Source: an uncultured bacterium
GTDB taxonomy: Bacteria > Patescibacteriota > Minisyncoccia > Phycocordibacterales > PALSA-1337
Direction: 5' to 3'
Assembly: GCA_963848635.1 (NCBI GenBank)
Contig: CAWKEA010000002.1
Span: 13,464 to 77,463, forward strand
DNA: 64,000 nt
Shown: one piece after another, positions 1,051 to 17,464 of the stretch
How the letters are laid out: every line of letters begins with the position of its first letter
How positions within the stretch are numbered: position 1 is the first letter of the stretch
Notes under the pieces: generated by a model
Seen by the model: the letters and a program-made list of their open reading frames with translations, nothing else
What the model was told of the DNA's origin: nothing
Database searches by the model: none
Made by a program: the position numbers and the translations under genes

Positions 1051-3561
1051 TTACAAACAAATCATGCTCGCGAGCGAATCGCCTTCACGCAGCTTCATGA
1101 CGCGAACGCCTTGTGTGGCGCGAGACAATGTCGGAATCTCTTTCAAATCGGTGCGAATGACCTGCGAGGCCTTCGACATGACCACGATCTCGATGTCGTC
1201 GTCAGTGACGACTTTGGCGGCCATGAGAGAGCCGGTCTTTGGCGTGACGTTCATAGTCAGGATGCCGGAGCCGCCTCGATTCTGGACTTTGTATTCGGAA
1301 AGCTTTGTCTTCTTGCCATAGCCGTTCGCGCCGAGGACGAAAAGCGCCGGGTTCTTGGCGTCTTTCGAGACGACATCGGCGGAGATGACGTGGTCGGCGG
1401 CGATCTTTTTCTTTGCATCTTCTTCGGCAAGCTTGATCACGCGGACGCCGGCGGCGCTACGGCCCATCTCGCGCACATCTGATTCCTTGAAATGGATCGA
1501 CTGTCCTTCCTGCGTTGCGATGACGATATCATCGTTCTTTGATACGAAATTGACCGAAATGAGCTCATCACCGGCGTCCAATGTGATAGCGATCAAACCC
1601 GAACGTCGAACGTCTTTGAAATTTGAGGCGGACGTCTTCTTGCCCGTGCCGTTCTTGGTCACCATGATGAGCGACAGACCATCGGCCGCTTTCTTGTCCT
1701 TTGGCATAGGTAGGATAGAAGTGACCTTTTCGCCGTCAGAGAGCGACAGGAAGTTCATGATCGACTTGCCTTTTGTGGCGCGCTTGCCTTCAGGAATATC
1801 ATACATCTTGATCTGATATGCCTTACCCATATCAGTAAAGAAAAGCAGATCGTTGTGCGTCGTGCCGGTGACGAGGTGCGTGATGAAATCCTCCTCTTTT
1901 GTGTCGAGGTCGACGACGCCGACGCCGCCGCGCTTTTGCTTGCGATATTCGTCAGGATTCGTCCTCTTTATATAGCCGCCTTTTGTCAGAACGAGAACGG
2001 ACTCCTCGTCCGGTATGAGGTCCTCGGCGTTGAATGCTTTGACGCCGTGCTTGATTATCTTTGTCCTCCTCGGATTGTCGTATTTGGCCTTGATCTCGTT
2101 GAGCTCGTCCTTTATGATGCCGCGCACTTTTTTCTCACTGCTCAATATCTCCTTCAATTTGCCGATAATCTCCTGGATTTCCTTCAATTCATCCAAAATC
2201 TTCTTCCTCTCGAGACCAGCCAGCTTTTGCAAGCGCATGTCCAAAATCGCCTGCGCCTGGAGGTCGCTGAATTTGAACTTCTTCATGAGGCCTGCCTTTG
2301 CGTCGGCGACGTCACTCGATGCGCGGATGAGCGTGATGATCTCGTCGATATGGTCGAGAGCTTTTTTCAAGCCGAGCAAGATGTGCTCGCGCGCCTCGGC
2401 TGTGTCGAGGTCGAATTTCGTCCTGCGGCGGATGACTTCTATCCTGTGGACGATGAATTCTTCGAGGATCGTCTTGAGCGAAAGCGTCTGCGGCACGCCG
2501 TGAACGAGAGCGACGGTGTTTATATGGAAAGTATCCTCGAGCTGGGTGTGTTTGTACAAGAAATTCAAGACTTTTTCAGGATAGGCGCCCTGCTTGAGAT
2601 CGATGACGATGCGAAGGTCCTTGTCTGATTCGTCGCGCAAGCCGCGTATGCCGTCGATCGATTTGTCTCGCACAAGATCAGCGATCTTGACGATAAGATC
2701 GCTCTTGTTCACGCGAAATGGGATCGAGGTGATGATGATCTGAAACTGGCCTTTCTTGTCCTCGATTATCTCTGCCTCGCCGCGGACGACGATGCCGCCC
2801 CTGCCGGTCGAGTATGCATGCCTGATATCGTTTTCGCCATACATTATAGCGCCCGTCGGGAAATCGGGGCCTTTGATGAATTGCATAAGGTCGTCGGTCG
2901 TGGCGTCCTTGTTCTCGATCAGATGCGTCGTAGCATCGACGACTTCGCCCAGATTGTGCGGAGCGATGTTCGTGGCCATACCGACAGCGATGCCGAGCGT
3001 GCCGTTCAAGAGCAGGTTCGGGACAGCGGCCGGCAGTACTGTCGGCTCCTTGCGCGTGCCGTCATAGTTCGGACGAAAATCGACGGTGTTCTTCTCGATA
3101 TCGCGAAGAAGCTCTGACGAGATGCGCGACATCTTTGCCTCGGTGTAACGCATGGCTGCAGCTGGGTCGCCGTCGATGTTGCCAAAGTTTCCTTGGCCTT
3201 GGACAAGCGGAGAGCGCATGCGGAAATCCTGCGCCATGCCGACGAGCGTGTCGTACACGGCGACGTCGCCATGCGGGTGATAGTTTCCGAGCACGTCACC
3301 GACGACGACAGCCGACTTGCGGAATTTCGCGGTCGATGTCAGGCCTTTTTCGTGCATGGCGTAGAGGATGCGGCGGTGCACCGGTTTCAATCCGTCGCGC
3401 ACGTCCGGCAGAGCGCGAGCTGTGATGACCGACATGGCATAGTCGAGATACGACGTGCGCATCTCGGTCGTGATAGGAGCATCGATGAGGCCCAAGGCAG
3501 GGTCGCGCGGGACTTCGGCAGCAGCATCCGTATCTCTGTTTTTGTCGCTCTTTTTTGGCAT
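1051..3561 (-). CDS. gyrA: DNA gyrase subunit A
   Basis: 836-aa ORF with a canonical GyrA N-terminus ([38 protein letters not shown]), an active-site region and a C-terminal beta-pinwheel repeat region. Confidence 0.95.
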
Positions 3562-3705: not shown

Positions 3706-4992
3706 ATGTCAGAAAAGCCAGAAAAATCAAATAAGCTCTCGACAGAACCATACAAAGGCGTGCGCGACTTTTATCCTGCCGACATGGCCGTGCAGAAATA
3801 TATCTTTGAAAAGTGGAAGAAGACCGCGGAGAGCTTCGGCTATGAGGAATACGGCGCCTCCGTGCTCGAGCCGGCGGACATGTATCGGGCAAAATCAGGC
3901 GAAGAGATCGTCAACGAGCAGACATACACTTTCACTGATCGCGGCGAGCGCGAGGTCACGTTGCGGCCGGAGATGACGCCGACGGTCGCTCGCATGGTCT
4001 CGGCCAGGAAACGCGAGCTTGTCTTCCCCTTGCGCTGGTATTCGATACCGAATCTTTTCCGCTACGAACAGCCCCAGCGCGGCCGCGTGCGAGAGCATTG
4101 GCAACTGAACGTCGACCTCTTTGGCGTGGACTCGATCGAGGCGGACATCGAGGTCATTTCCCTTGCCTACCAAGTGATGAGGAATTTCGGCGCAAAGGAC
4201 AGCGATTTTGAGATACGGGTGAATGATCGTGGATTAATGAACTCAATTGTTCAAGAAATATTGGAAATCAACGATAAAGTGATAATAACAAAACTCTTTA
4301 AAATAATCGATCGAAAAGAAAAAATGCCTCAGCGAGATTTCGAAATTGCGACTGGACTTTTAATTGATGAAAAATCAATCCTCTTAACGAAATTATTGAA
4401 TTGCAAAAATATTGAAGAATTAACCACTATTATTTCTCAGAATAATAAGAAGGTTAGTAACGTAGTAGAAATAGCAAGTTTTATCGAACAACTTAAAGGG
4501 TTGGGAATCAAGAATATTCGCTTTGATCAAAGTCTCATGCGCGGTTTCGACTATTACACCGGCATGGTCTTCGAGATCTACGACACGAGCCCCGAGAACA
4601 AGCGCGCGCTCTTTGGCGGCGGCCGATATGACGATCTGGCCTCCCTTTTCGGCGGCGACAAGATCCCTGCGGTCGGCTTTGGCATGGGCGACGTGACGAT
4701 CAGAGACTTTCTCGAGACCCACAGTCTCCTCCCAAGCACAAAAGGCCCGGCTGATTATTACATCTGCGTCATGAGCGAGGCAGAAGCGGCTTTTGCCGAA
4801 AAGAAAGCAAAAGAGCTCCGCGACAAAGGCTCCCGCGTCGCCGTCGACTTTACCTATAAAAAGATCGGTGAGCAGATAAAATCCGCCGATAAGCGAGGCA
4901 TACCGAGCGTCATCGTCATCGGTCCCGAAGAAGCAAAGAGCGGCAAAGCAAAGGTAAAAGATTTGAAGACAGGAGAAGAAAAAGAATTGTAA
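3706..4992 (+). CDS. hisS: Histidine--tRNA ligase
   Basis: Class II aaRS motifs typical of HisRS (YKGVRDFYP, TFTDRGEREVTLRPEMTPTVARM, YEQPQRGRVREHWQLNVDLFG, GGGRYDDL). The ORF opens at 3649, and the likely start is M at 3706. It has an AT-rich insertion-domain segment at 4200-4530. Confidence 0.9.
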   Translation: MSEKPEKSNKLSTEPYKGVRDFYPADMAVQKYIFEKWKKTAESFGYEEYGASVLEPADMYRAKSGEEIVNEQTYTFTDRGEREVTLRPEMTPTVARMVSARKRELVFPLRWYSIPNLFRYEQPQRGRVREHWQLNVDLFGVDSIEADIEVISLAYQVMRNFGAKDSDFEIRVNDRGLMNSIVQEILEINDKVIITKLFKIIDRKEKMPQRDFEIATGLLIDEKSILLTKLLNCKNIEELTTIISQNNKKVSNVVEIASFIEQLKGLGIKNIRFDQSLMRGFDYYTGMVFEIYDTSPENKRALFGGGRYDDLASLFGGDKIPAVGFGMGDVTIRDFLETHSLLPSTKGPADYYICVMSEAEAAFAEKKAKELRDKGSRVAVDFTYKKIGEQIKSADKRGIPSVIVIGPEEAKSGKAKVKDLKTGEEKEL

Positions 4993-5043
4993 GAACGGAC
5001 TTTACAAGCTTTACGGACTTTTTAACTTTATAAACTCACTTTC

Positions 5044-5619
5044 ATGCGCGTCATCACCTTTGATATAGAGACAAAGAACTTATTTCAGGATGTCGGCTCC
5101 TCAGATCCGGCGGCTTTGGATGTGTCCGTCGTCGGCGTGCACGATTCCGAGTCGGGCGAATACACCGGCTTTCTTGAAAAAGATTTTTTAAAGATGTGGC
5201 CATTGTTCGAAGCGGCTGATGCCATCGTCAGCTTCAACGGAGACCATTTCGACATTCCAATCTTGAACAAGTATTACCACGGCAACCTGTCGAACATTAA
5301 AAGCATCGATCTCATGCTCGAGGTGCAGAAAGTCCTCGGACGAAGGATCAAGCTCGATACTCTGGCCGAAGCGACGCTCGGCAAGAAAAAGTCGGGAAAC
5401 GGCCTCGAAGCGGTGACATGGTGGAGAAACGGAGAAGTCGAAAAAGTGATGAAGTACTGCCTCGATGACGTGCGCGTGACCCGCGAGCTCTATGAATATA
5501 TGCGAGACAACGGATCGGTCAAATATCGCGAACAGGGCATCATAAAAGAATTAAAGATAGACACCGCCGGATGGGACAAAGCGCCGCAAGCGGCCATGAA
5601 TTTTTCATTGCCGTTCTGA
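5044..5619 (+). CDS. RNase H-like 3'-5' exonuclease (YprB / PolB-exo-like stand-alone domain)
   Basis: Has an N-terminal FDIET exo-I-like motif and a C-terminal YxxxD-like motif (YCLDDVRVTRELYEY). 191 aa. Confidence 0.55.
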   Translation: MRVITFDIETKNLFQDVGSSDPAALDVSVVGVHDSESGEYTGFLEKDFLKMWPLFEAADAIVSFNGDHFDIPILNKYYHGNLSNIKSIDLMLEVQKVLGRRIKLDTLAEATLGKKKSGNGLEAVTWWRNGEVEKVMKYCLDDVRVTRELYEYMRDNGSVKYREQGIIKELKIDTAGWDKAPQAAMNFSLPF

Positions 5620-5715
5620 TGCAGGAATGGGAGGCATCGAAACCAGTCTGAGCGCCCATATCGCGCTTTTACATTATGATATACTTAATTTACAGCAAAT
5701 TAATCATATATAATC

Positions 5716-6519
5716 ATGGAACCAAACCAAGAGACTAGACCCCAGCAGATACTTACGATACCGATGGCGATCGTTTTGGCTGCCGTCATCATAGCCGGAG
5801 TTCTGCTGTATATGTATCGTCCGACTGCTTCTATCCAGCCAGCGGCAAATAGCCAAACTGCACCATCAGCAACAGTTCCCGACACCAGCTCTCTGCCGCC
5901 CGTCACTGCGAGCGACCACATCCTCGGCAACCCAAACGCTCCGATAAAGATCGTCGAGTATTCCGATCCGTCATGCCCATATTGCAAGATGTTCCAGACG
6001 ACCATGCTTGAGATCATGCAAAAATACGGCGCTTCCGGACAGGTTGCTTGGATATATCGCGATTTTCCTCTCGACAAACCCGATCAGAACGGCAGTGTGC
6101 TCCATCCGAATGCAGGCACGCAGTCAAACGCTTTCGAATGCGCAGCCTCCGTCGGTGGCGATGCTGGTTTCTGGTCCTATGAAAAAGACTGGTTCACTAC
6201 GTTTCCTTCCGACGGCGCGGACGAATCGTCGAGCGTCGACAATCAACAGATAACGCAAACAGCCATCGATACCGGCCTCGATACGACAGCGTTCAAGGAT
6301 TGCGTCGCGAGCGGCAAGCTCTCTAAAGCAGTCGATAGCGAATATGCCGCCGGTCTTGCCCTCGGCATCGAAGGCACGCCGACCAGCTATCTCGTAACAT
6401 CAACGAGCCAGCCGATCGCCATTCAGGGAGCACAATCATATGCGGCGCTTTCGGCGGCTATCGATGCGATCCTTGCGAACAACGAACAAGGCGCCGCTTC
6501 TACGACATCGGCGCAATAG
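5716..6519 (+). CDS. Membrane-anchored DsbA-like thiol:disulfide oxidoreductase (thioredoxin fold, CPYC)
   Basis: An N-terminal TM helix, a CPYC active site preceded by IVEYSDPS, and a C-terminal GTPT cis-Pro region. Confidence 0.7.
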   Translation: MEPNQETRPQQILTIPMAIVLAAVIIAGVLLYMYRPTASIQPAANSQTAPSATVPDTSSLPPVTASDHILGNPNAPIKIVEYSDPSCPYCKMFQTTMLEIMQKYGASGQVAWIYRDFPLDKPDQNGSVLHPNAGTQSNAFECAASVGGDAGFWSYEKDWFTTFPSDGADESSSVDNQQITQTAIDTGLDTTAFKDCVASGKLSKAVDSEYAAGLALGIEGTPTSYLVTSTSQPIAIQGAQSYAALSAAIDAILANNEQGAASTTSAQ

Positions 6520-6729
6520 TTACGAGTGTGCGATAGTTACGACTGTATTATATTTACTGGTCACTACGTAACTGATTACCAAATATTAGCCCATTGTTGA
6601 GCCACAGTTTCCGCTAAGTGGATCTGCAGGCACCAACAACGCATGTATTGTTCAAGAAATAAAAGTTAAAAAATAGAAAAAATGCCACGGTAATTGGGTA
6701 GTATGCCTCTTATTTTCCATTTTCGAGTA

Positions 6730-6803
6730 ATTGCAAATCATTCGCAATTAAGCTTGATTTAATGGCTTACTTTCGTTATTCAATTGCAAACCATTCGCAA
6801 TTA
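6730..6803. repeat. Two copies of a 22-bp imperfectly palindromic motif (AATTGCAAAtCATTCGCAATTA) about 50 bp apart, in the convergent intergenic region
   Basis: Direct sequence comparison of 6730-6751 and 6781-6803. Confidence 0.5.
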
Positions 6804-6925
6804 GACGTCTGTATAAAAAGATCGGACAAGGAGAGATCGCCTCCGGCCGCGTTTTTATTTTTTCAGTTTTTCTTTTTTCAGTTCCTTCTTTTGTCTTTTC
6901 ATGTTTAATCATTCCTCCCCCCCTA

Positions 6926-10927: not shown

Positions 10928-12154
10928 TCAATAATTCCTCAATCTCCCGGCTTTTTCGTGCTGTCGTATCTTTTCATGGGCTTTTGCCTCGATCTGGCGG
11001 ATGCGCTCGCGGGTGACCTCGAACTCCTTGCCGACCTCTTCGAGGGTATGCTGGACGCCGTCCATCAATCCACAGCGCATCTCCAGGATCTTTCGCTCTT
11101 TTTCCGACAATTCATTCAGGATCTCGCGCACCTGGTCAGCCAATATGCGGCGGGAGCTTTCCTGATCCGGCGATAGGATCTTGTCGTCTGCGATAAAGTC
11201 GCCGAGAGTCGATTTATCCTCGCCTTCGTCGCCGACCGGCATCTCGAGCGAGCCGACCGGTTGGTCGATCTTTTCTATCTGATATATCTTGTCGACCTCG
11301 ATTCCCATCTCGGTGGCGATCTCTTCTGGCAATGGGTCGCGGCCGAGGTCCTGGGTCAGACGGCGGACGACTTGCTTGTATTTGGCGATCGTCTCGACCA
11401 TGTGAACCGGCACGCGTATGGTGCGGCTTTGGTCGGCCAATGCGCGAGTGATGGCCTGGCGTATCCACCACGTGGCATACGTCGAGAACTTATACCCTTT
11501 TGTCCAGTCGAACTTGTCGACTGCCTTGAACAATCCGAGGTTGCCTTCCTGAATGAGGTCGAGCAGGGTCAAGTCAGGAGAACGGCCGACGTATTTTTTT
11601 GCGATAGAGACGACGAGGCGCAGGTTCGCTTTGGCCAAAAGGCCCTTAGCCTCGTTGTCGCCGGCGGCAATGTGCCGTGCCAGCTCTTTTTCGCGCGCAG
11701 CGGAGATGAGCGGATACTGGCCTATCTCGCGCAGATACATCTGTATGGAATCATAAGCGGAATCTCCCGAACGCGATCCATATGAATATTTTTTGGATGC
11801 TGGAGCGGCGTCCTTCTCAACACTGAGAAGACCCCCTCCTTCGAGGATGTCGATGCCGGAGGCGGCGAACTTGCTGTACAAGTCATCGAGAAAAGAAATG
11901 TCGGATTCGACGGTCGGAAATTCCCTGAGTATCTCGTCATATGTCACGAAGCCGCGCTCCTTGCCCTTGACCATGAGCTTGCCAGCCTTTGTGTCGGATA
12001 TCTTCTGAGCGTCCTTCTGTTTTTTTGACTGTTGCGATTTCTTTGATTCCTTCGGTTTTGCCGCCGAGGCCGGCTTCTTGTGTATTGAAATGGGCTTTTT
12101 TGAAGCCTTTGTTGTGCTCTTCGTATTTATTTTTTTTGACGTGCTTTTTGCCAT
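10928..12154 (-). CDS. rpoD: RNA polymerase sigma-70 factor RpoD
   Basis: Regions 1.2 through 4, including [32 protein letters not shown], and region 4 [21 protein letters not shown]. Confidence 0.9.
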
Positions 12155-12279
12155 TATGGCTCTATAAGGACCAGGTTGACAATTCTAAAGCAAAACGAAT
12201 AAAGGCGCAACGTTGACATGTGGACAAGTGGGTGGTAGGGTTCGGAGAGACAACAATAAAACAAATACGGAGGTACTTT

Positions 12280-12771
12280 ATGTTTGATGAAAACACTTTG
12301 AATGTTCACGATCTCTGTCACGCATTCTTTACTGGGATGCTCAATGGATATGCCGGAAATTCCAAAACGAGCTTGATTCCCGAATTGGCCGCCAAGATTA
12401 TGACTTGGAAAGAAGGCCATTACGCCTTGGTCGACCATTGGCAAACGACAAAGCTCAGCCGAAAAAGCTTTGGAACAACCATGATCTCCTTTGACGATGA
12501 CATCGTCTGGGAGATGCAATACTGGGGTGAGTACAAGGATGAAGTGATTCCGTTTCTGAAGGAAGCTTTAGCGGCCGCTTATGGGGATAGATTGTTCTGC
12601 GGCGGAAGAGGGGCATATCGTTTCGAAAAGAGCGGCCTGCTGTATGTTAATGTTCCATCTTCAAACGACTTTGAAGATTTCAGCGGCAAGGAAATGGTGA
12701 TAAACGGAGCAGGCCATGTCCAAGGATGGCACAAATACCGCGGCATGCAGACTTGGCGCAATGGAAAGTAA
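12280..12771 (+). CDS. Conserved hypothetical protein
   Basis: ORF 12220-12771, with the likely start at MFDENTLNV. Followed by the terminator at 12803-12832. Confidence 0.45.
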   Translation: MFDENTLNVHDLCHAFFTGMLNGYAGNSKTSLIPELAAKIMTWKEGHYALVDHWQTTKLSRKSFGTTMISFDDDIVWEMQYWGEYKDEVIPFLKEALAAAYGDRLFCGGRGAYRFEKSGLLYVNVPSSNDFEDFSGKEMVINGAGHVQGWHKYRGMQTWRNGK

Positions 12772-13445: not shown

Positions 13446-15260
13446 TCACTCCTTCCTCCTTTTCCTCACGTCTTCCAACTTTCTTGAGAGCTCATGGCAC
13501 AGCTTGCCTGCGGCGTTCGATTTGTCGATATCCTTCTCCCGTTCGGCGGCGGCGAGGTCGGCCATGGCCTCCGCAAGCCTCCCCTTTAATATATCTTCCT
13601 CGAAATTGATCATGAGCTCGTCGAGCTCTTTTTTGATGTCGCGGCCTTCACCGTAGGTGATCTCTGCCTCAAGGACGAGCTCGTCGCGAAATGGAGCGAT
13701 ATCGGCGATCATCTTGTCATATCCGTCGCCGACGATCTCTCGGAGATGATCAAAGTAGCCTTTTGGCGCGATAGATGATTTTTCAGGGCTCTTTTCGATT
13801 GAAGTAAGGATGCCGAAGAGCTTGCGCGCGACCATGTCGAGGCGTGCCGGCGAGGCAGGCTTTGGAGCTGTGGCATTATCCCTCGCCGTTGCGAGCGCGG
13901 CCCGAGATTCCGAAGCGGCTTCGGCAGATTTCTTTTCAAGGACGGACTTGAGGTCATCGCGAACCGCTTCTTCGGACAGGCCGGTTTTGGTGTGGATCAT
14001 CTTGATCCAGTGCGAGCGCTCCATACTGCCCTTGACCTCGGCGATGAAGGGCAAGACCTTTTCTCGGATGGCTGTCGGGAGCTTCCGCGGATCGAGCTTG
14101 GCTTTGCCGTCGGACGAAACAGTTTCCTTCATGATGCCGTCGAGGACGAATTCGACGATCGGCTTTGCGTGGCGCAGAGTTTCCTTCCAATTCTCGGGAT
14201 TTGCAAGGACAAGATCGGCGGGATCCTTCCCCCCTTCTATATCGGCGATTTTGACATCCATGCCGAGATTGAGGGCGATGCGAGCGGCGCGGAGAGCTGC
14301 GTTGTGACCCGCTTTGTCTGAATCAAAAGCAATGAGCAAGATTCGGCGACAAGCGGCGGATGATGCCGAGATTGTTCGTCACCTGCTCGCGTGAGATGGT
14401 ATCGTCAGCGAGCGCGTGCCCGAGGCCGCGACGGTATTCTTTATTCCCGCCTGATGCGACATGATGAGGTCCATCTGGCCTTCAACCAGAATCGTATAAT
14501 CCTTTTTGCGGATCTCGCTTTTCGCCTTGTCGATGCCGTAGAGAACGGCTGATTTATCGTAGAGCGGCGTGTCCGGCGTGTTTATATACTTGCCCTCGCC
14601 TTCCTTTTCATGAAGCAAACGGCCGGAAAATGCGATAACGCGGCCGGATGAATCCATGATCGGAAACATGACGCGGTCGCGGAAACGGTCGTAATAATTG
14701 CCGGATCCGTCTTTCCTTCTTGACCAGGCCCGCCTTCTCCATATCGGCTGTCCGCTCACGATCCTCTTTTTGGACGAGGGCGTCGTCGCGAGATGCCGCC
14801 AACCCTCAGGAACAAAGCCGATGCGGAATTCCTTGATCGTCTCGTCTGTGACTCCCCTTTTCTTCAGATATTCTTTCGCTTCGCCGGAAAGCTGCGACTG
14901 GTAGAAAATCGCGGCGGCCTCCATGACTGAATAGCAGCACGCTCGCGCTCGGTTTTTCTTTTCCCGATTTTCAAAAGCGATAGGAATGCCCGCGCGCTCT
15001 GCCAACAATTTCAAGGCGCCCATGAAATCGAGCCCTTCGAACTGCTCGACAAACGTGAAGATGTCGCCCTTCGCCCCGCAACCGAAGCAATAGAACGAGC
15101 CGCGATCAGGCGACACAAAGAACGACGCTGTCTTTTCATTATGGAACGGACAGCGGCCTTTGAAGTTCTTGCCCGCCTTTTCCAGCTTCATATACGACGA
15201 AATGACCTCCTCGACGCCGAGGCGCTCTTTTATCAAATCGACTGTGGAGCGGTCTCTCAT
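13446..15260 (-). CDS. dnaG: DNA primase DnaG, interrupted by two compensating single-nucleotide frameshifts within about 14340-14400 (ORF fragments 14379..15260 and 13446..14339)
   Basis: The upstream fragment has the zinc-finger CPFHNEKTASF, the RNA-polymerase domain and the start of TOPRIM (ILVEGQMDLIMSHQAGIKNTVAASGT). The downstream fragment continues TOPRIM (LIAFDSDKAGHNAALRA). The intervening 27 codons read in a third frame as ALADDTISREQVTNNLGIIRRLS. Confidence 0.8.
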
Positions 15261-15355: not shown

Positions 15356-15889
15356 TTAATGTTTGACAGCATCTTTCCAATAACGGAACGTGCTTTTCTC
15401 GATCGAACCTGGGTACTGTTCCTCAACTTCCTGCAAAGCCGCCAAAAATGCTCGCGACTCTTCTCGGAGACCAAGCATGGTTAGACACTTCAGGATGCGT
15501 GTAATCCGGAGCAAATTATGGTTTTGAGGTGTAAGCCAATGCTCCGCTTGTCGCCGGAAAACGACTCGTGTGTTGCCGATGACGACTTTTCCTTGAACGG
15601 ACCCCATCGTAAAACCATAGAATTTAAGCATCCGTGCAAATGATCTCAGAAGATTACTGCGGAGTTTTGCAACAGACAGAAAGGCTTGGATATCCTCTGC
15701 GGTGAGCACAGGCGCATCAGAATTGAATCGGCTTGGTTCAGGCCACTGAATGTAATCGTGGACAGTCTCGAGCCTGTTGTCGTTCCACGAAAGGATCTCA
15801 CTGAGAGTCCGGCCATTAGCATCGAATCCTCTTCCAGAATAGAAACGTGTAAAAACGGTTGTGGTTTTCATCTGACTGCAGATAACCAC
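15356..15889 (-). CDS. OGFr-conserved-region-like domain protein (hypothetical)
   Basis: 177 aa, resembling the bacterial OGFr N-terminal conserved region (HDYIQWPEP ... NHNLLRITRILKCL). Confidence 0.45.
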   Translation of the reverse strand: MVICSQMKTTTVFTRFYSGRGFDANGRTLSEILSWNDNRLETVHDYIQWPEPSRFNSDAPVLTAEDIQAFLSVAKLRSNLLRSFARMLKFYGFTMGSVQGKVVIGNTRVVFRRQAEHWLTPQNHNLLRITRILKCLTMLGLREESRAFLAALQEVEEQYPGSIEKSTFRYWKDAVKH

Positions 15890-15914
15890 GATTCACCGAT
15901 CTTTGCAAGTCAAA

Positions 15915-15950
15915 ATTTTCTTTATAAAAAATTTAACCTTTCTTAATAAC
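15915..15950 (+). promoter_or_regulatory. Recurrent promoter-like motif, copy B (TTTTCTTTATAAAAAATTTAACCTTTCTTAATAACC), plus a TATAAT box at 15959-15964
   Basis: Shares TCTTTATAA..TTTAAC(C/T)TTTCTTAAT with copies A and C and drives the structured RNA downstream. Confidence 0.5.
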
Positions 15951-15970
15951 CAATTTTATATAATTGCATT

Positions 15971-16272
15971 CGAATGATCATTTTGACCTGTGGGGGTACC
16001 AGTGGTTGGGAGTTCCTCCTTGCTAGTTGGAGCTCGGGGGTTCGACTCCCCCTACCTCCACAGGGCAAAGTGATTATTGGCGATGTAGAGTGAGAGAAAT
16101 ACAAGAGTAATCTTTCGTAGTTCCGGACCGAGAAGCTATGAAAGTAAACTTAATTCACAGCATTCACTTGCATTTACTTACAAATTAGCTTATACTTTCC
16201 TTACAACTAGCAAGGAGGAGCCAATCAATGGTGAGTCCAACATAAATCCGCTTCGGCGGGTTTTGTGTTTTT
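15971..16272 (+). ncRNA. Structured RNA with a 5' tRNA-like domain and a long-range 16-bp helix; tmRNA-like (ssrA?) candidate of unusual topology
   Basis: The tRNA-like domain spans 15992-16060. It has a 5' acceptor strand GGGGGUA, a GG-containing D-analog, a T-arm GGGGG-UUCGACU-CCCCC, and a 3' acceptor strand UACCUCC+A forming a 7-bp stem with G3:U70. The 16-nt segment 16014-16029 is perfectly complementary to 16204-16219. The transcript ends at a hairpin plus U-tract at 16248-16272. No canonical ...LAA tag ORF was found. Confidence 0.4.
16248..16272 (+). terminator. Rho-independent terminator (CCGC-TTCG-GCGG + GTTTTGTGTTTTT), convergent with the mnmA stop
   Basis: A tetraloop hairpin followed by a T-rich tract. 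Confidence 0.6.
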
Positions 16273-17464
16273 ATAGAATCACTCCTCCTCCCAAGCAAAT
16301 TTCCCCCTCATACACGACGAGCGACTGCCCTCCCGTCAGAGCGTTCTGCGGCTTGTCGAATTCGATCGTGGCGGTTCCCTGCCTGCCGGCAGGCATGGTT
16401 TCCTTTTCATTAATTGAAGTAAAGACAAGCGATTCGAGCGGCTGGCGGTAGCGCGCGCGACCGGAATATTTTTTGCCAACTACCGGAGTTCCGCTCATCC
16501 AATTCGTCTTTTCGAGCTTGACCGACGTCTTCGCCTCTGCCAAAAGCCCATGCTTGTCCTTGTTCGAGACAGTGATCGTATTCTTGTCGAGATCTTTTGC
16601 CACAATGTAATACGGCTCGTCATGCGGCGTTTTCTTGTCGATGACAAATCCATGCCTCTCGCCGATCGTCAGAAAGAACGCGCCGTCGTGGCGGCCGATC
16701 GCGTTTCCTGCTTCATCCAAAACTTCCCCAGCTTTCGGCTCCATATAATGAGAAAGGAATTCCTTTATATCGACTTTACCAATAAAACAAAGGCCTTGGC
16801 TGTCTTTCTTTTCAGCATTCGGCAATTTGAATTTACGTGCCAGCTTGCGTACATCCGGCTTTTCGATGTCGCCTATCGGAAAAAGTATATGGGGCAGCTG
16901 TTCCGTGCGGATGTTCCAGAGAAAGTATGACTGGTCCTTGTTCGGATCGGAGCCAGCCAAAAGTTTCAAGTTGCAAGTTGCAAGTTGCAAGTTATTTTTT
17001 TCTTCACTTGTCACTTGTAACTTATCACTTGTAACTATTTTCGCATAATGCCCGGTCGCCACGAAATCAGCGCCTTGACCGATCGCCCAATCGTAGAACG
17101 CGCCGAATTTGACGCTCTTGTTGCACATGACGTCCGGATTCGGAGTACGGCCCGCCCGATATTCGGCGATCATATAGTCGACGACGTAGCGCTTGTATTC
17201 CTTTTCGAGATCGAGCGTCAAAAATGGTATGTCCAAAACAGCGGCGACGCGCATAGCATCCAGCCGGTCCTGCCGCCAATTGCAGTCCATCCAATCCGGT
17301 TGCCAGACTTTTATGAAGACGCCCATGACGTCATATCCTGCCGCCTTCAAAAGCGCCGCCGAAACCGAGCTATCGACGCCGCCGGACATGCCGACAAAAA
17401 CGCGTTTGGCGTGATTTTTGATTTTTGTGCTTTTAGTTTTCCCTTGACCTTTCATTCTTGGCAT
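16271..17464 (-). CDS. mnmA: tRNA-specific 2-thiouridylase MnmA
   Basis: PP-loop FVGMSGGVDSSVSAALL, the catalytic Cys region, and a C-terminal beta-barrel. The likely start is MPRMKG at 17464. Contains the in-frame repeat insertion at 16961-17037. Confidence 0.85.
   Translation of the reverse strand: MPRMKGQGKTKSTKIKNHAKRVFVGMSGGVDSSVSAALLKAAGYDVMGVFIKVWQPDWMDCNWRQDRLDAMRVAAVLDIPFLTLDLEKEYKRYVVDYMIAEYRAGRTPNPDVMCNKSVKFGAFYDWAIGQGADFVATGHYAKIVTSDKLQVTSEEKNNLQLATCNLKLLAGSDPNKDQSYFLWNIRTEQLPHILFPIGDIEKPDVRKLARKFKLPNAEKKDSQGLCFIGKVDIKEFLSHYMEPKAGEVLDEAGNAIGRHDGAFFLTIGERHGFVIDKKTPHDEPYYIVAKDLDKNTITVSNKDKHGLLAEAKTSVKLEKTNWMSGTPVVGKKYSGRARYRQPLESLVFTSINEKETMPAGRQGTATIEFDKPQNALTGGQSLVVYEGEICLGGGVIL
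16961..17037. repeat. Tandem heptamer (GCAAGTT, 4-5 copies) and its inverted partner (CACTTGTAAC-like, 3 copies), forming an imperfect hairpin inside the mnmA coding sequence
   Basis: The run aagtttcaagttgcaagttgcaagttgcaagtt ... cacttgtcacttgtaacttatcacttgtaac. It is in frame and encodes ...KLQVTSEEKNNLQLATCNLKLL... Confidence 0.6.

Follow-up and report, generated by a model that had tools for sequence, protein, structure and literature searches.

Two adjacent genes on the plus strand of a 64,000-nucleotide stretch of contig CAWKEA010000002.1, from an uncultured member of the Patescibacteriota (the whole stretch is referred to below as the window), are predicted to encode a 69-nt tRNA-like RNA (15992-16060) and, downstream of it, a small RNA (16203-16272) whose 5' end is complementary to the part of the tRNA-like RNA where an anticodon arm would be expected. 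We tentatively favor the view that these genes form a two-gene RNA module, in which the first RNA is a transfer-messenger RNA (tmRNA) reduced to its tRNA-like domain, or mini-tmRNA, and the second is an antisense small RNA dedicated to it. A preliminary description of the region, drawn from the letters of the window alone, had instead proposed a single structured RNA of ~300 nt. As outlined below, the evidence for such a module comes from a long-range helix that covaries among four loci, from the similarity of the upstream element to tmRNA, and from a promoter that keeps a fixed distance to the downstream strand of the helix.

A long-range helix covaries among four loci

We compared four full loci: that of the window; L005, a syntenic homologue (GCA_031291935.1) that was reached via relatives of MnmA and whose own MnmA is 75% identical; and L033 and L034, close relatives of each other and, like L005, from Paceibacteria, which were recovered by a metagenome scan with the terminator block of the small RNA. 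Loci were aligned by structure and pairs were counted by script, a cell being one base pair position in one locus's helix count. The strand targeted by the small RNA (X, 16012-16029) runs from the 5' strand of an anticodon-like stem through the 12-nt loop to the first base of the 3' strand. The partner strand (X') occupies 16204-16221. As first described, a 16-nt core of X (16014-16029; UCCUCCUUGCUAGUUG) is 100% complementary to 16204-16219, and this pairing is kept in the three homologues. The 16-mer of the X core had no other match in the window at 3 or fewer mismatches, and by our estimate ~0.004 perfect 16-nt inverted repeats within 300 nt are expected by chance per 64 kb.

Across the four loci, 66 of 67 cells of the X:X' helix were paired, and both sides had changed in 16 of its 18 pairs. 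Shifting X' by 1-3 columns, as a control for register, left 36-49% pairing. Non-cognate strands likewise paired poorly (13/18 and 9/17 for the window against L005), except for those of L033 with L034, and the helix sequences themselves were unrelated among the window, L005 and the L033/L034 pair. All four positions that deviated from Watson-Crick pairing had U in X and G in X'. Since a wobble pair of this orientation can form only in RNA of the plus strand, this pattern points to selection acting at the level of RNA and not on an inverted repeat in the DNA. The preliminary description had proposed an alignment of relatives to look for covariation in the helix and in the acceptor stem of the tRNA-like element; both displayed it (16/18 and 4/7 pairs changed on both sides, respectively). 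Taken together, the covariation indicates that the long-range helix is real and exceeds what chance would produce.

We also compared the folding energies of the two RNAs. Cofolding the tRNA-like RNA with the small RNA gained -14 to -29 kcal/mol over their separate folds in the four loci (-19.2 kcal/mol in the window). In L033 and L034 the helix of X with X' reaches into the D arm, and the tail of the small RNA is complementary to the D arm and the acceptor 5' strand in the window (p ~0.015) and in L034 (p 0.02). The long complementarity of X and X', kept by compensatory change, is what is expected of an antisense pair.

The upstream element matches the tRNA-like domain of tmRNA

The tRNA-like domain was delimited by its match to Rfam model RF00023, by a cloverleaf in its minimum-free-energy fold and by covariation. 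It consists of the acceptor 5' strand GGGGGUA (15992-15998), a D-like arm CCA-GUGGU-UGG (15999-16009), a hairpin predicted by folding that resembles an anticodon arm or a stub of tmRNA helix P2 (16010-16035), a canonical T arm GGGGG-UUCGACU-CCCCC (16036-16052), the acceptor 3' strand UACCUCC (16053-16059), which forms the G3:U70 pair, and the discriminator A73 (16060). The sequence claims made for this 69-nt element in the preliminary description, namely G3:U70, a GG-containing D-analog, the T arm and A73, all hold. CCA is not encoded after A73, nor is it in the window's tRNA-Pro gene; CA follows A73 in all four loci.

The cloverleaf measures 69-72 nt in the four loci, with an acceptor stem of 7 bp, a directly joined D stem with a GG-containing loop of 4-5 nt, an anticodon-like hairpin with a stem of 4-7 bp and a loop of 11-13 nt, a linker of 0-4 nt and the T loop UUCGACU. 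Its stems covaried in their own right. In the acceptor stem 26 of 28 cells were paired and 4 of 7 pairs were changed on both sides; the corresponding figures were 16/16 and 4/5 for the D arm, and 20/20 and 2/5 for the T arm. G1:C72, G3:U70 and A73 were invariant, as was the U preceding G1, and the acceptor stem of L033 contained two mismatches.

Positions 16014-16029 had been described as a single strand replacing the anticodon arm. While there is indeed no canonical arm, the strand need not be single, because a local hairpin (GAGUUCC/GGAGCUC; 7 bp, 12-nt loop, -10.4 kcal/mol) can form. This hairpin is found with different sequences in all four loci, where it is kept via compensatory change, suggesting that the free RNA has a fold of its own with which the small RNA would compete. 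The same observation, together with the invasion of the D arm in some members, indicates that the long-range helix, which had been likened to P2, is not its simple equivalent.

We next asked which RNA family the domain most resembles. RF00023 was the best Rfam model and beat the tRNA model RF00005 in clan competition. With E-value reporting it matched 15992-16063 over model positions 1-374, with the body deleted (33.5 bits, E 8.9e-10), and in an alignment run it scored 25 bits, aligning the acceptor stem, the UGG of the D-analogue, the T arm and CUCCAC with P2 and the body deleted. Homologues also matched (L005, 25.1 bits, E 1.9e-6; L034, 20.9 bits, E 1e-4). These alignments, which include both ends of the model, substantiate the likeness to tmRNA noticed in the preliminary description. 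The score of 33.5 (or 25) is below the gathering score of 47. At gathering thresholds, Rfam returned tRNA-Gln and tRNA-Pro alone for the window and nothing for this locus, and ARAGORN, in default and tmRNA-only modes, made no call at the module in any of the four loci, its calls in the window being the same two tRNAs.

The topology proved to be neither that of a one-piece nor that of a permuted ssrA, as had been argued. Both acceptor strands lie inside the upstream 69-nt unit, which is incompatible with the permuted gene order, and RF04321 (permuted tmRNA) gave a truncated match of 13.7 bits against a gathering score of 47. A standard P2 enclosing pseudoknots is likewise missing, its equivalents being the local hairpin of 4-7 bp and a helix with a strand that is not joined to the T arm. 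The domain possesses the tRNA-like features of tmRNA (7-bp acceptor stem with G3:U70, discriminator A and GGUUCGA-type T loop) and departs from a canonical tRNA in its 11-13-nt loop, its 4-5-nt D loop and its lack of linkers 8, 9 and 26. A decoding or suppressor tRNA was considered and rejected: relaxed ARAGORN settings gave Pyl-CUA and Gly-ACC in two loci and no call in the other two, with mismatched stems. The tRNA-Pyl(CUA) call had G at position 33 and a mismatched stem, and was not reproduced in homologues. Since the loci share no anticodon, the element is not a decoding tRNA.

In agreement with the preliminary description, which had found no canonical open reading frame (ORF) for a tag peptide, none was conserved among the four loci, and no frame was common to the four small RNAs or to the four spacers. 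A 1-nt indel between L033 and L034 disrupts their frames, and the single shared frame crosses the terminator with no stop before the expected 3' end. Two candidates were set aside. An ORF for a tag of the ASAGFVF type passes through the terminator without a stop inside the RNA, while Shine-Dalgarno sequestration or a small ORF (AAGGAGGA followed by ATG, MVSPT*) would depend on a sequence specific to the window, the helix being unrelated in sequence in the other members. Taken together, model similarity and anatomy indicate that the element is a tmRNA tRNA-like domain without a message, which is a known kind of molecule.

The partner strand is predicted to begin a separate small RNA

Immediately upstream of X' is a sigma-70-type promoter (promoter 2, 16168-16196), consisting of TTGCAT (16168-16173), a 17-nt spacer and TATACT (16191-16196). 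The corresponding sequences are TTGCAT-17-TATCAT in L005 (8 of 12 consensus matches), TTAACT-18-TATACT in L033 (9/12) and TTGACT-18-TATACT in L034 (10/12), the latter two being flagged by the promoter scan. In all four loci the -10 box ends exactly 7 nt 5' of X'. The predicted small RNA of ~66 nt would start at A16203 and end at ~16270. It begins with X', continues in a single-stranded, A-rich tail with UCCAACAUAAA, in a stretch that closes with CAAC(A)AAAUCC in the four loci, and finishes in a terminator detected by the scan (CCGC-UUCG-GCGG plus U tract, 16244-16272), a 27-nt block of which is identical in L005. This is the tetraloop terminator that the preliminary description had placed after the partner strand.

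The spacer between the tRNA-like domain and promoter 2 (16061-16167) is unconserved and holds a window-specific insertion of ~100 nt; the spacer measures 117 nt in the window, 37 nt in L005 and ~25 nt in L033 and L034. The metagenome scan that recovered the latter two also returned L035 and L036, which contain the small RNA only, with the same start and terminator. These solo small RNAs (L036, ~4960-5050, minus strand; L035, ~2095-2160, minus strand) display the TATACT-N7 start and an identical 24-nt terminator block, carry other 5' seeds and have no tRNA-like gene upstream. The L036 seed (CCCAGAUGGUAAGCUGG) has 11 nt in common with the partner strand of L005. These loci may encode orphan regulators, or their partners may be encoded elsewhere. 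Three observations, namely the fixed distance to the promoter, the variable spacer and the existence of solo small RNAs, make X' the probable 5' end of a small RNA of ~66 nt that is transcribed on its own and has a shared terminator. For the same reasons, a single ~300-nt RNA as originally proposed is improbable. The accompanying suggestion that 3' processing might yield a short acceptor RNA to which a tail RNA is bound in trans came close, except that the tail would be a small RNA in its own right.

The tRNA-like RNA is predicted to have a promoter of its own (promoter 1), whose TATAAT -10 box was confirmed at 15959-15964. The box reads TACAAT in L005 and L034 and TAAAAT in L033, and lies ~7 nt 5' of the leader in every locus; no clear -35 box was found, and the consensus scan did not flag this promoter. 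Upstream lies an AT-rich block (15912-15949, plus strand; AAAATTTTCTTTATAAAAAATTTAACCTTTCTTAATAA) of which 37 of 38 positions are identical in L005 despite the 75% identity of MnmA. This block is unique in the window, partly palindromic (AAAATTTT, TTTATAAA), has a similar counterpart in L034 (TTTCTTTATCAAAATTTT) and is possibly an UP element or regulator site for promoter 1. The 5' leader (15970-15991) ends in U(-1) and is presumably removed by RNase P. It can form a hairpin of -11.7 kcal/mol in L005, -8.1 in L034, -5.6 in L033 and -1.6 in the window. The window leader pairs with the trailer instead, through an inverted repeat of 15973-15998 with 16053-16078 that is not present in the homologues; the start of the trailer (16061-16078) and the leader thereby lengthen the acceptor stem to ~26 bp in the window alone. 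The sole terminator-like site within 15850-16350 is at 16244-16263. Since the spacer contains no terminator, transcripts from promoter 1 probably read through to X'.

Proposed mode of action and alternative explanations

Anatomy, conservation, covariation, similarity to tmRNA models, promoter and terminator signals and pairing energetics were established here from sequence; that the RNAs are transcribed separately, processed, charged with alanine and bound by SmpB, and that their interaction is inhibitory, is inferred. In our proposal, gene 1, transcribed from the promoter near 15959, would give a mature RNA of 15992-16060 with an added CCA and no message, while gene 2, transcribed from the promoter at 16168-16196, would give an RNA of ~16203-16270 that begins with 16-18 nt of antisense sequence directed at the 5' strand and the loop of the stub hairpin. 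The mini-tmRNA would be matured by RNase P and 3' trimming, charged by alanyl-tRNA synthetase, and bound by SmpB and EF-Tu; the invariant G3:U70, A73, U(-1) and T loop suggest maturation by RNase P and at the 3' end as well as charging with alanine. Having neither a resume nor a stop codon, it would either block trans-translation by titrating SmpB and EF-Tu or take over the nascent peptide without a tag. The small RNA would nucleate on the exposed loop, invade the stem and, in some members, the D arm too, and the resulting duplex of 16-21 bp would unfold the tRNA-like core and offer a substrate to RNase III. Duplex formation would thus neutralize or tune the mini-tmRNA, making the pair akin to an RNA-RNA regulator or an antitoxin-toxin system. 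An antisense regulator fits better than a structural partner in view of the pairing of the D arm and tail, the sporadic distribution, the mismatches in L033 and the orphan small RNAs. Standard tmRNAs number 5252 in 6765 Patescibacteria genomes, or 0.78 per genome (PMC11915505, Supplementary Table 2), a value that is usual for phyla known mainly from metagenome-assembled genomes (PMC11915505). Since standard tmRNA is therefore the rule in this phylum, the element is more likely an accessory than the ssrA of its lineage.

Several points weigh against this proposal. Only four members were found in all, two of which (L033 and L034) are close relatives. L005 lacks the additional complementarity of the tail (p 0.63), which in L033 is marginal (p 0.07). 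In three members the local hairpin has little stability (-1.5 to -5.4 kcal/mol), so that X may be mostly single-stranded and the intermolecular helix may be the functional structure, with a constructive role. Promoter 2 has 8 of 12 consensus matches in the window and L005, which is below the scan threshold, and X and X' may pair in cis inside a read-through transcript. The D region is unlike the D-loop analogue of tmRNA (GGAUUCGAC), making SmpB binding an assumption, and the putative toxicity or inhibition is extrapolated from work in E. coli on other constructs.

The weakness of the local hairpin in three members would also suit a different arrangement, which we consider possible, if unlikely: the two RNAs would join via X:X' as a P2 in trans, forming a split tmRNA that is tag-less or bears a minimal tag and that serves, with SmpB, as the ribosome-rescue RNA of the lineage. 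The single strand of the small RNA would then contribute no more than a few codons, or a stop codon and nothing else. Such a role would account for a tmRNA-type domain with an invariant alanine identity set and for a helix that drifts in sequence while remaining paired, as P2 does in tmRNAs, and stops do occur 0-10 nt past the helix in the four small RNAs (AAC-UAA in L033 and L034, GUU-UAG in L005, UGG-UGA in the window). Precedents exist in tmRNAs without a coding sequence (CDS) and in 2-aa tags (PMC11915505), and ~22% of Patescibacteria genomes have no detected tmRNA (PMC11915505), the thresholds of ARAGORN and Rfam missing the RNA present here. However, no resume codon or frame is conserved, and the spacing from helix to stop is inconsistent. 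Moreover, the small RNA pairs into the D arm of L033 and L034 and complements the acceptor 5' strand in the window, which would destroy the tRNA-like core; in contrast to P2, X is also joined to that core on either side. Sporadic distribution, the degenerate acceptor of L033, the orphan small RNAs of L035 and L036 with no tRNA-like gene, and the lack of smpB near any locus likewise argue against a general rescue function. The broader claim that these Paceibacteria lack a conventional ssrA and that a two-gene tmRNA, in which an alanine-charged tRNA-like RNA and a separately transcribed small RNA dock via the covarying helix of 16-19 bp, performs ribosome rescue in them is unlikely; if true, it would add a third tmRNA architecture, tag-less or nearly so, to the one-piece and permuted two-piece forms.

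Turning the direction of regulation around, the small RNA could be a trans-acting regulator of mRNAs and the tRNA-like RNA its sponge or decoy, a role for which bacteria offer precedents derived from tRNA spacers, such as 3'ETS-leuZ. Trans-acting small RNAs typically have their seed at the 5' end, as is the case here, L033 and L034 have the first 9 nt of the seed in common, and in L035 and L036 the scaffold (TATACT-N7 start, variable seed, A-rich stretch, identical terminator) stands alone with other seeds. We nevertheless regard this explanation as improbable, since a search of the 330 kb of DNA examined, in which up to 3 mismatches were allowed, gave no other site complementary to any seed, seeds differ wholly among the window, L005 and L033/L034, which is unexpected if mRNA targets are conserved, and the intact alanine identity set, A73, the U(-1) context for RNase P and the T loop would have no explanation. 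That invariance also speaks against one cis-folded RNA of ~300 nt with a new one-piece tmRNA topology, in which an unreleased acceptor end would make G3:U70 and A73 pointless. Although the missing terminator before X' predicts that read-through transcripts with both strands must exist, the 301-nt region as a whole folds at z = -5.65, and leader and trailer pair in the window, the latter pairing is lacking in homologues, the spacer is conserved in neither length nor sequence, a conserved promoter stands at a fixed distance from X', and solo small RNAs exist; the explanation is distinctly improbable. We find it hardly credible that the 16-bp inverted repeats form an inverton at the DNA level or that the element is a degenerate tRNA or tmRNA fragment beside a chance repeat. 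Promoter 2 does sit between the repeat arms, and relaxed ARAGORN does force tRNA calls in two members. On the other hand, the repeats differ wholly between loci while the flanks are conserved, the imperfect positions are all G-U wobbles that can form on the plus strand alone, and no recombinase was seen among the neighbors examined in the four contexts (the upstream neighbor of L005 not included). Covariation of the acceptor, D and T stems is likewise unlike a decaying gene or recombination site, and the forced tRNA calls, which do not extend to L033 and L034, disagree in their anticodons and involve mismatched stems.

Relation to known systems

Together, tmRNA and SmpB form a near-universal bacterial system for ribosome rescue whose known gene forms are few: standard, intron-containing and permuted. 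To our knowledge, forms reduced to the tRNA-like domain are limited to a single phage and a small number of plastids and reduced genomes, and we know of no regulation acting on them. Candidate-phyla bacteria already have an unusual translation apparatus. The tRNA-like-domain-only tmRNA of phage DS6A has been described, and in E. coli a molecule of this kind inhibits tmRNA, which may reflect titration of SmpB (PMC4131195, PMC11915505). Among the CDS-less forms in a 2025 tmRNA database are three 'Standard NoCDS' entries from Patescibacteria (9FT-COMBO-53-11 sp001772805), a phylum in which one species is reported as possibly without a tag frame (PMC11915505).

The closest parallels to our mini-tmRNA are these CDS-less tmRNAs (ssrA of mycobacteriophage DS6A, plastid forms of ~65 bp and the database class 'Standard, no CDS', which includes a Patescibacteria species), with which, going by their descriptions, it shares a length of ~70 nt, a G3:U70 acceptor, a reduced D region, a P2 stub, a T arm, the absence of a tag frame and a closer match to the tmRNA than to the tRNA model. 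In contrast to them, the module described here is chromosomal in Paceibacteria, has its own promoter and leader hairpin and a real D stem, and, most notably, is coupled to a small RNA of its own, with covariation between the 5' end of that RNA and the stub, whereas the known forms have no described partner. With standard tmRNA (RF00023, acting with SmpB) the domain has in common the acceptor and T-arm sequence, the 3' CUCCAC, the alanine identity set and a sequence-variable helix directly after the D region, in the manner of P2; it differs in possessing neither pseudoknots nor a message, and in that its P2-like helix uses a downstream strand not joined to the T arm. Permuted tmRNAs of Alphaproteobacteria, Betaproteobacteria and Cyanobacteria (RF04321, RF01849-51) are similarly made of two base-paired pieces that follow one another on the same strand, the upstream piece holding the T arm and the 3' acceptor strand. 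Their acceptor stem, however, is divided between the pieces, the downstream one opening with the 5' acceptor strand and bearing the tag ORF. In the present module both acceptor strands are upstream, and the downstream piece lacks an ORF and is predicted to have a promoter of its own.

Antisense and other RNA-RNA pairs provide a second point of comparison, among them ColE1 RNA I/RNA II, CopA/CopT and the type I and VIII toxin-antitoxin systems (SdsR/RyeA, CreT/CreA). There, too, a structured target presents a loop, on which an unstructured end of a small RNA nucleates before extending to a long duplex, a divergent specificity region is set on a conserved scaffold, distribution is sporadic and orphan regulators occur. 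In the present case, by contrast, the regulator lies downstream of its target on the same strand rather than opposite to it, and the target is tRNA-like and is predicted to be aminoacylatable, rather than an mRNA or replication primer; its toxicity is hypothetical.

Searches of the literature turned up no account of a tmRNA-like RNA that is paired with a small RNA in bacteria of the candidate phyla radiation, and the dedicated, covarying partner therefore seems to be a new feature, described nowhere in the literature found. It may represent either a new off/on switch of trans-translation, built of an RNA-only inhibitor and its anti-inhibitor, or a new split architecture of the rescue RNA. Since ARAGORN and the Rfam thresholds missed the module, surveys that report tmRNA to be absent from such lineages may be incomplete. 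A covarying guide-target pair on a fixed scaffold may also offer a compact natural case of programmable RNA-RNA recognition.

Genomic context and distribution of the module

The module in the window is flanked by genes for a bacterial protein with an OGFr_N domain, MnmA, MltG/YceG, DnaG and RpoD, and the nearest homologues of MnmA are from metagenome-assembled genomes of Paceibacteria/Parcubacteria. These flanking genes and MnmA relatives place the module in a chromosomal housekeeping region of a bacterium of the candidate phyla radiation. Its immediate neighbors are the OGFr_N-protein gene and mnmA in the window, mnmA on one side in L005 (the neighbor on the other side was not identified), a methyltransferase gene and gyrA in L033, and mreB (recognized by eye from sequence) and murA in L034. 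As judged from these neighbors, the predicted module is conserved across four unrelated genomic contexts. A companion protein gene was considered and rejected, the neighbors differing among loci with none traveling with the RNA module. No smpB was detected by tblastn in the window or in any homologous locus retrieved, which extends the earlier remark that none is adjacent.

We examined the distribution of the module by a synteny walk, in which 12 MnmA homologues were tried. L005 was the sole carrier among them, and the module was missing at the same site in 9 of the 11 mnmA relatives examined, being absent or having no room there (L001/L002, L003, L004, L006, L037, L038/L039 and L040 are module-free). 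This sporadic distribution and the two acceptor mismatches of L033 fit an accessory element. Scanning genome contigs with a 20-mer of the AT-rich upstream block returned 26 chance matches in unrelated AT-rich genomes and none in Paceibacteria. Three scans of viral contigs (small-RNA promoter plus terminator, terminator alone, and upstream block plus T loop) gave no match, nor did BLAST of the locus against phages.

Some further features of these loci were recorded. The gene at 15356-15889 (minus strand), between mnmA and dnaG, encodes the OGFr N-terminal domain protein (PF04664, E 5e-22), and its position is conserved in at least one relative (L003). L033 has two genes for type IV secretion system (T4SS) pilin-like proteins (PF18895) and an IS200-type transposase a few kb from the RNA module (5065-6816 and 12097-12741). 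In L006, which lacks the module, the short spacer between mnmA and dnaG (2772-2860) holds a direct repeat, GTACAAGGGTAGCCC. Lastly, the dnaG gene of the window (13446-15260, minus strand) is interrupted by an in-frame TGA at 14379-14381. Its translation around the TGA (GTRSLTIPSHASR*RTISASSAACRRILLIAFDSDKAG) seems off-frame relative to a normal Toprim domain, while relatives encode a single DnaG of 600-640 aa; the split gene could be a pseudogene, or could reflect compensating frameshifts or an assembly error.

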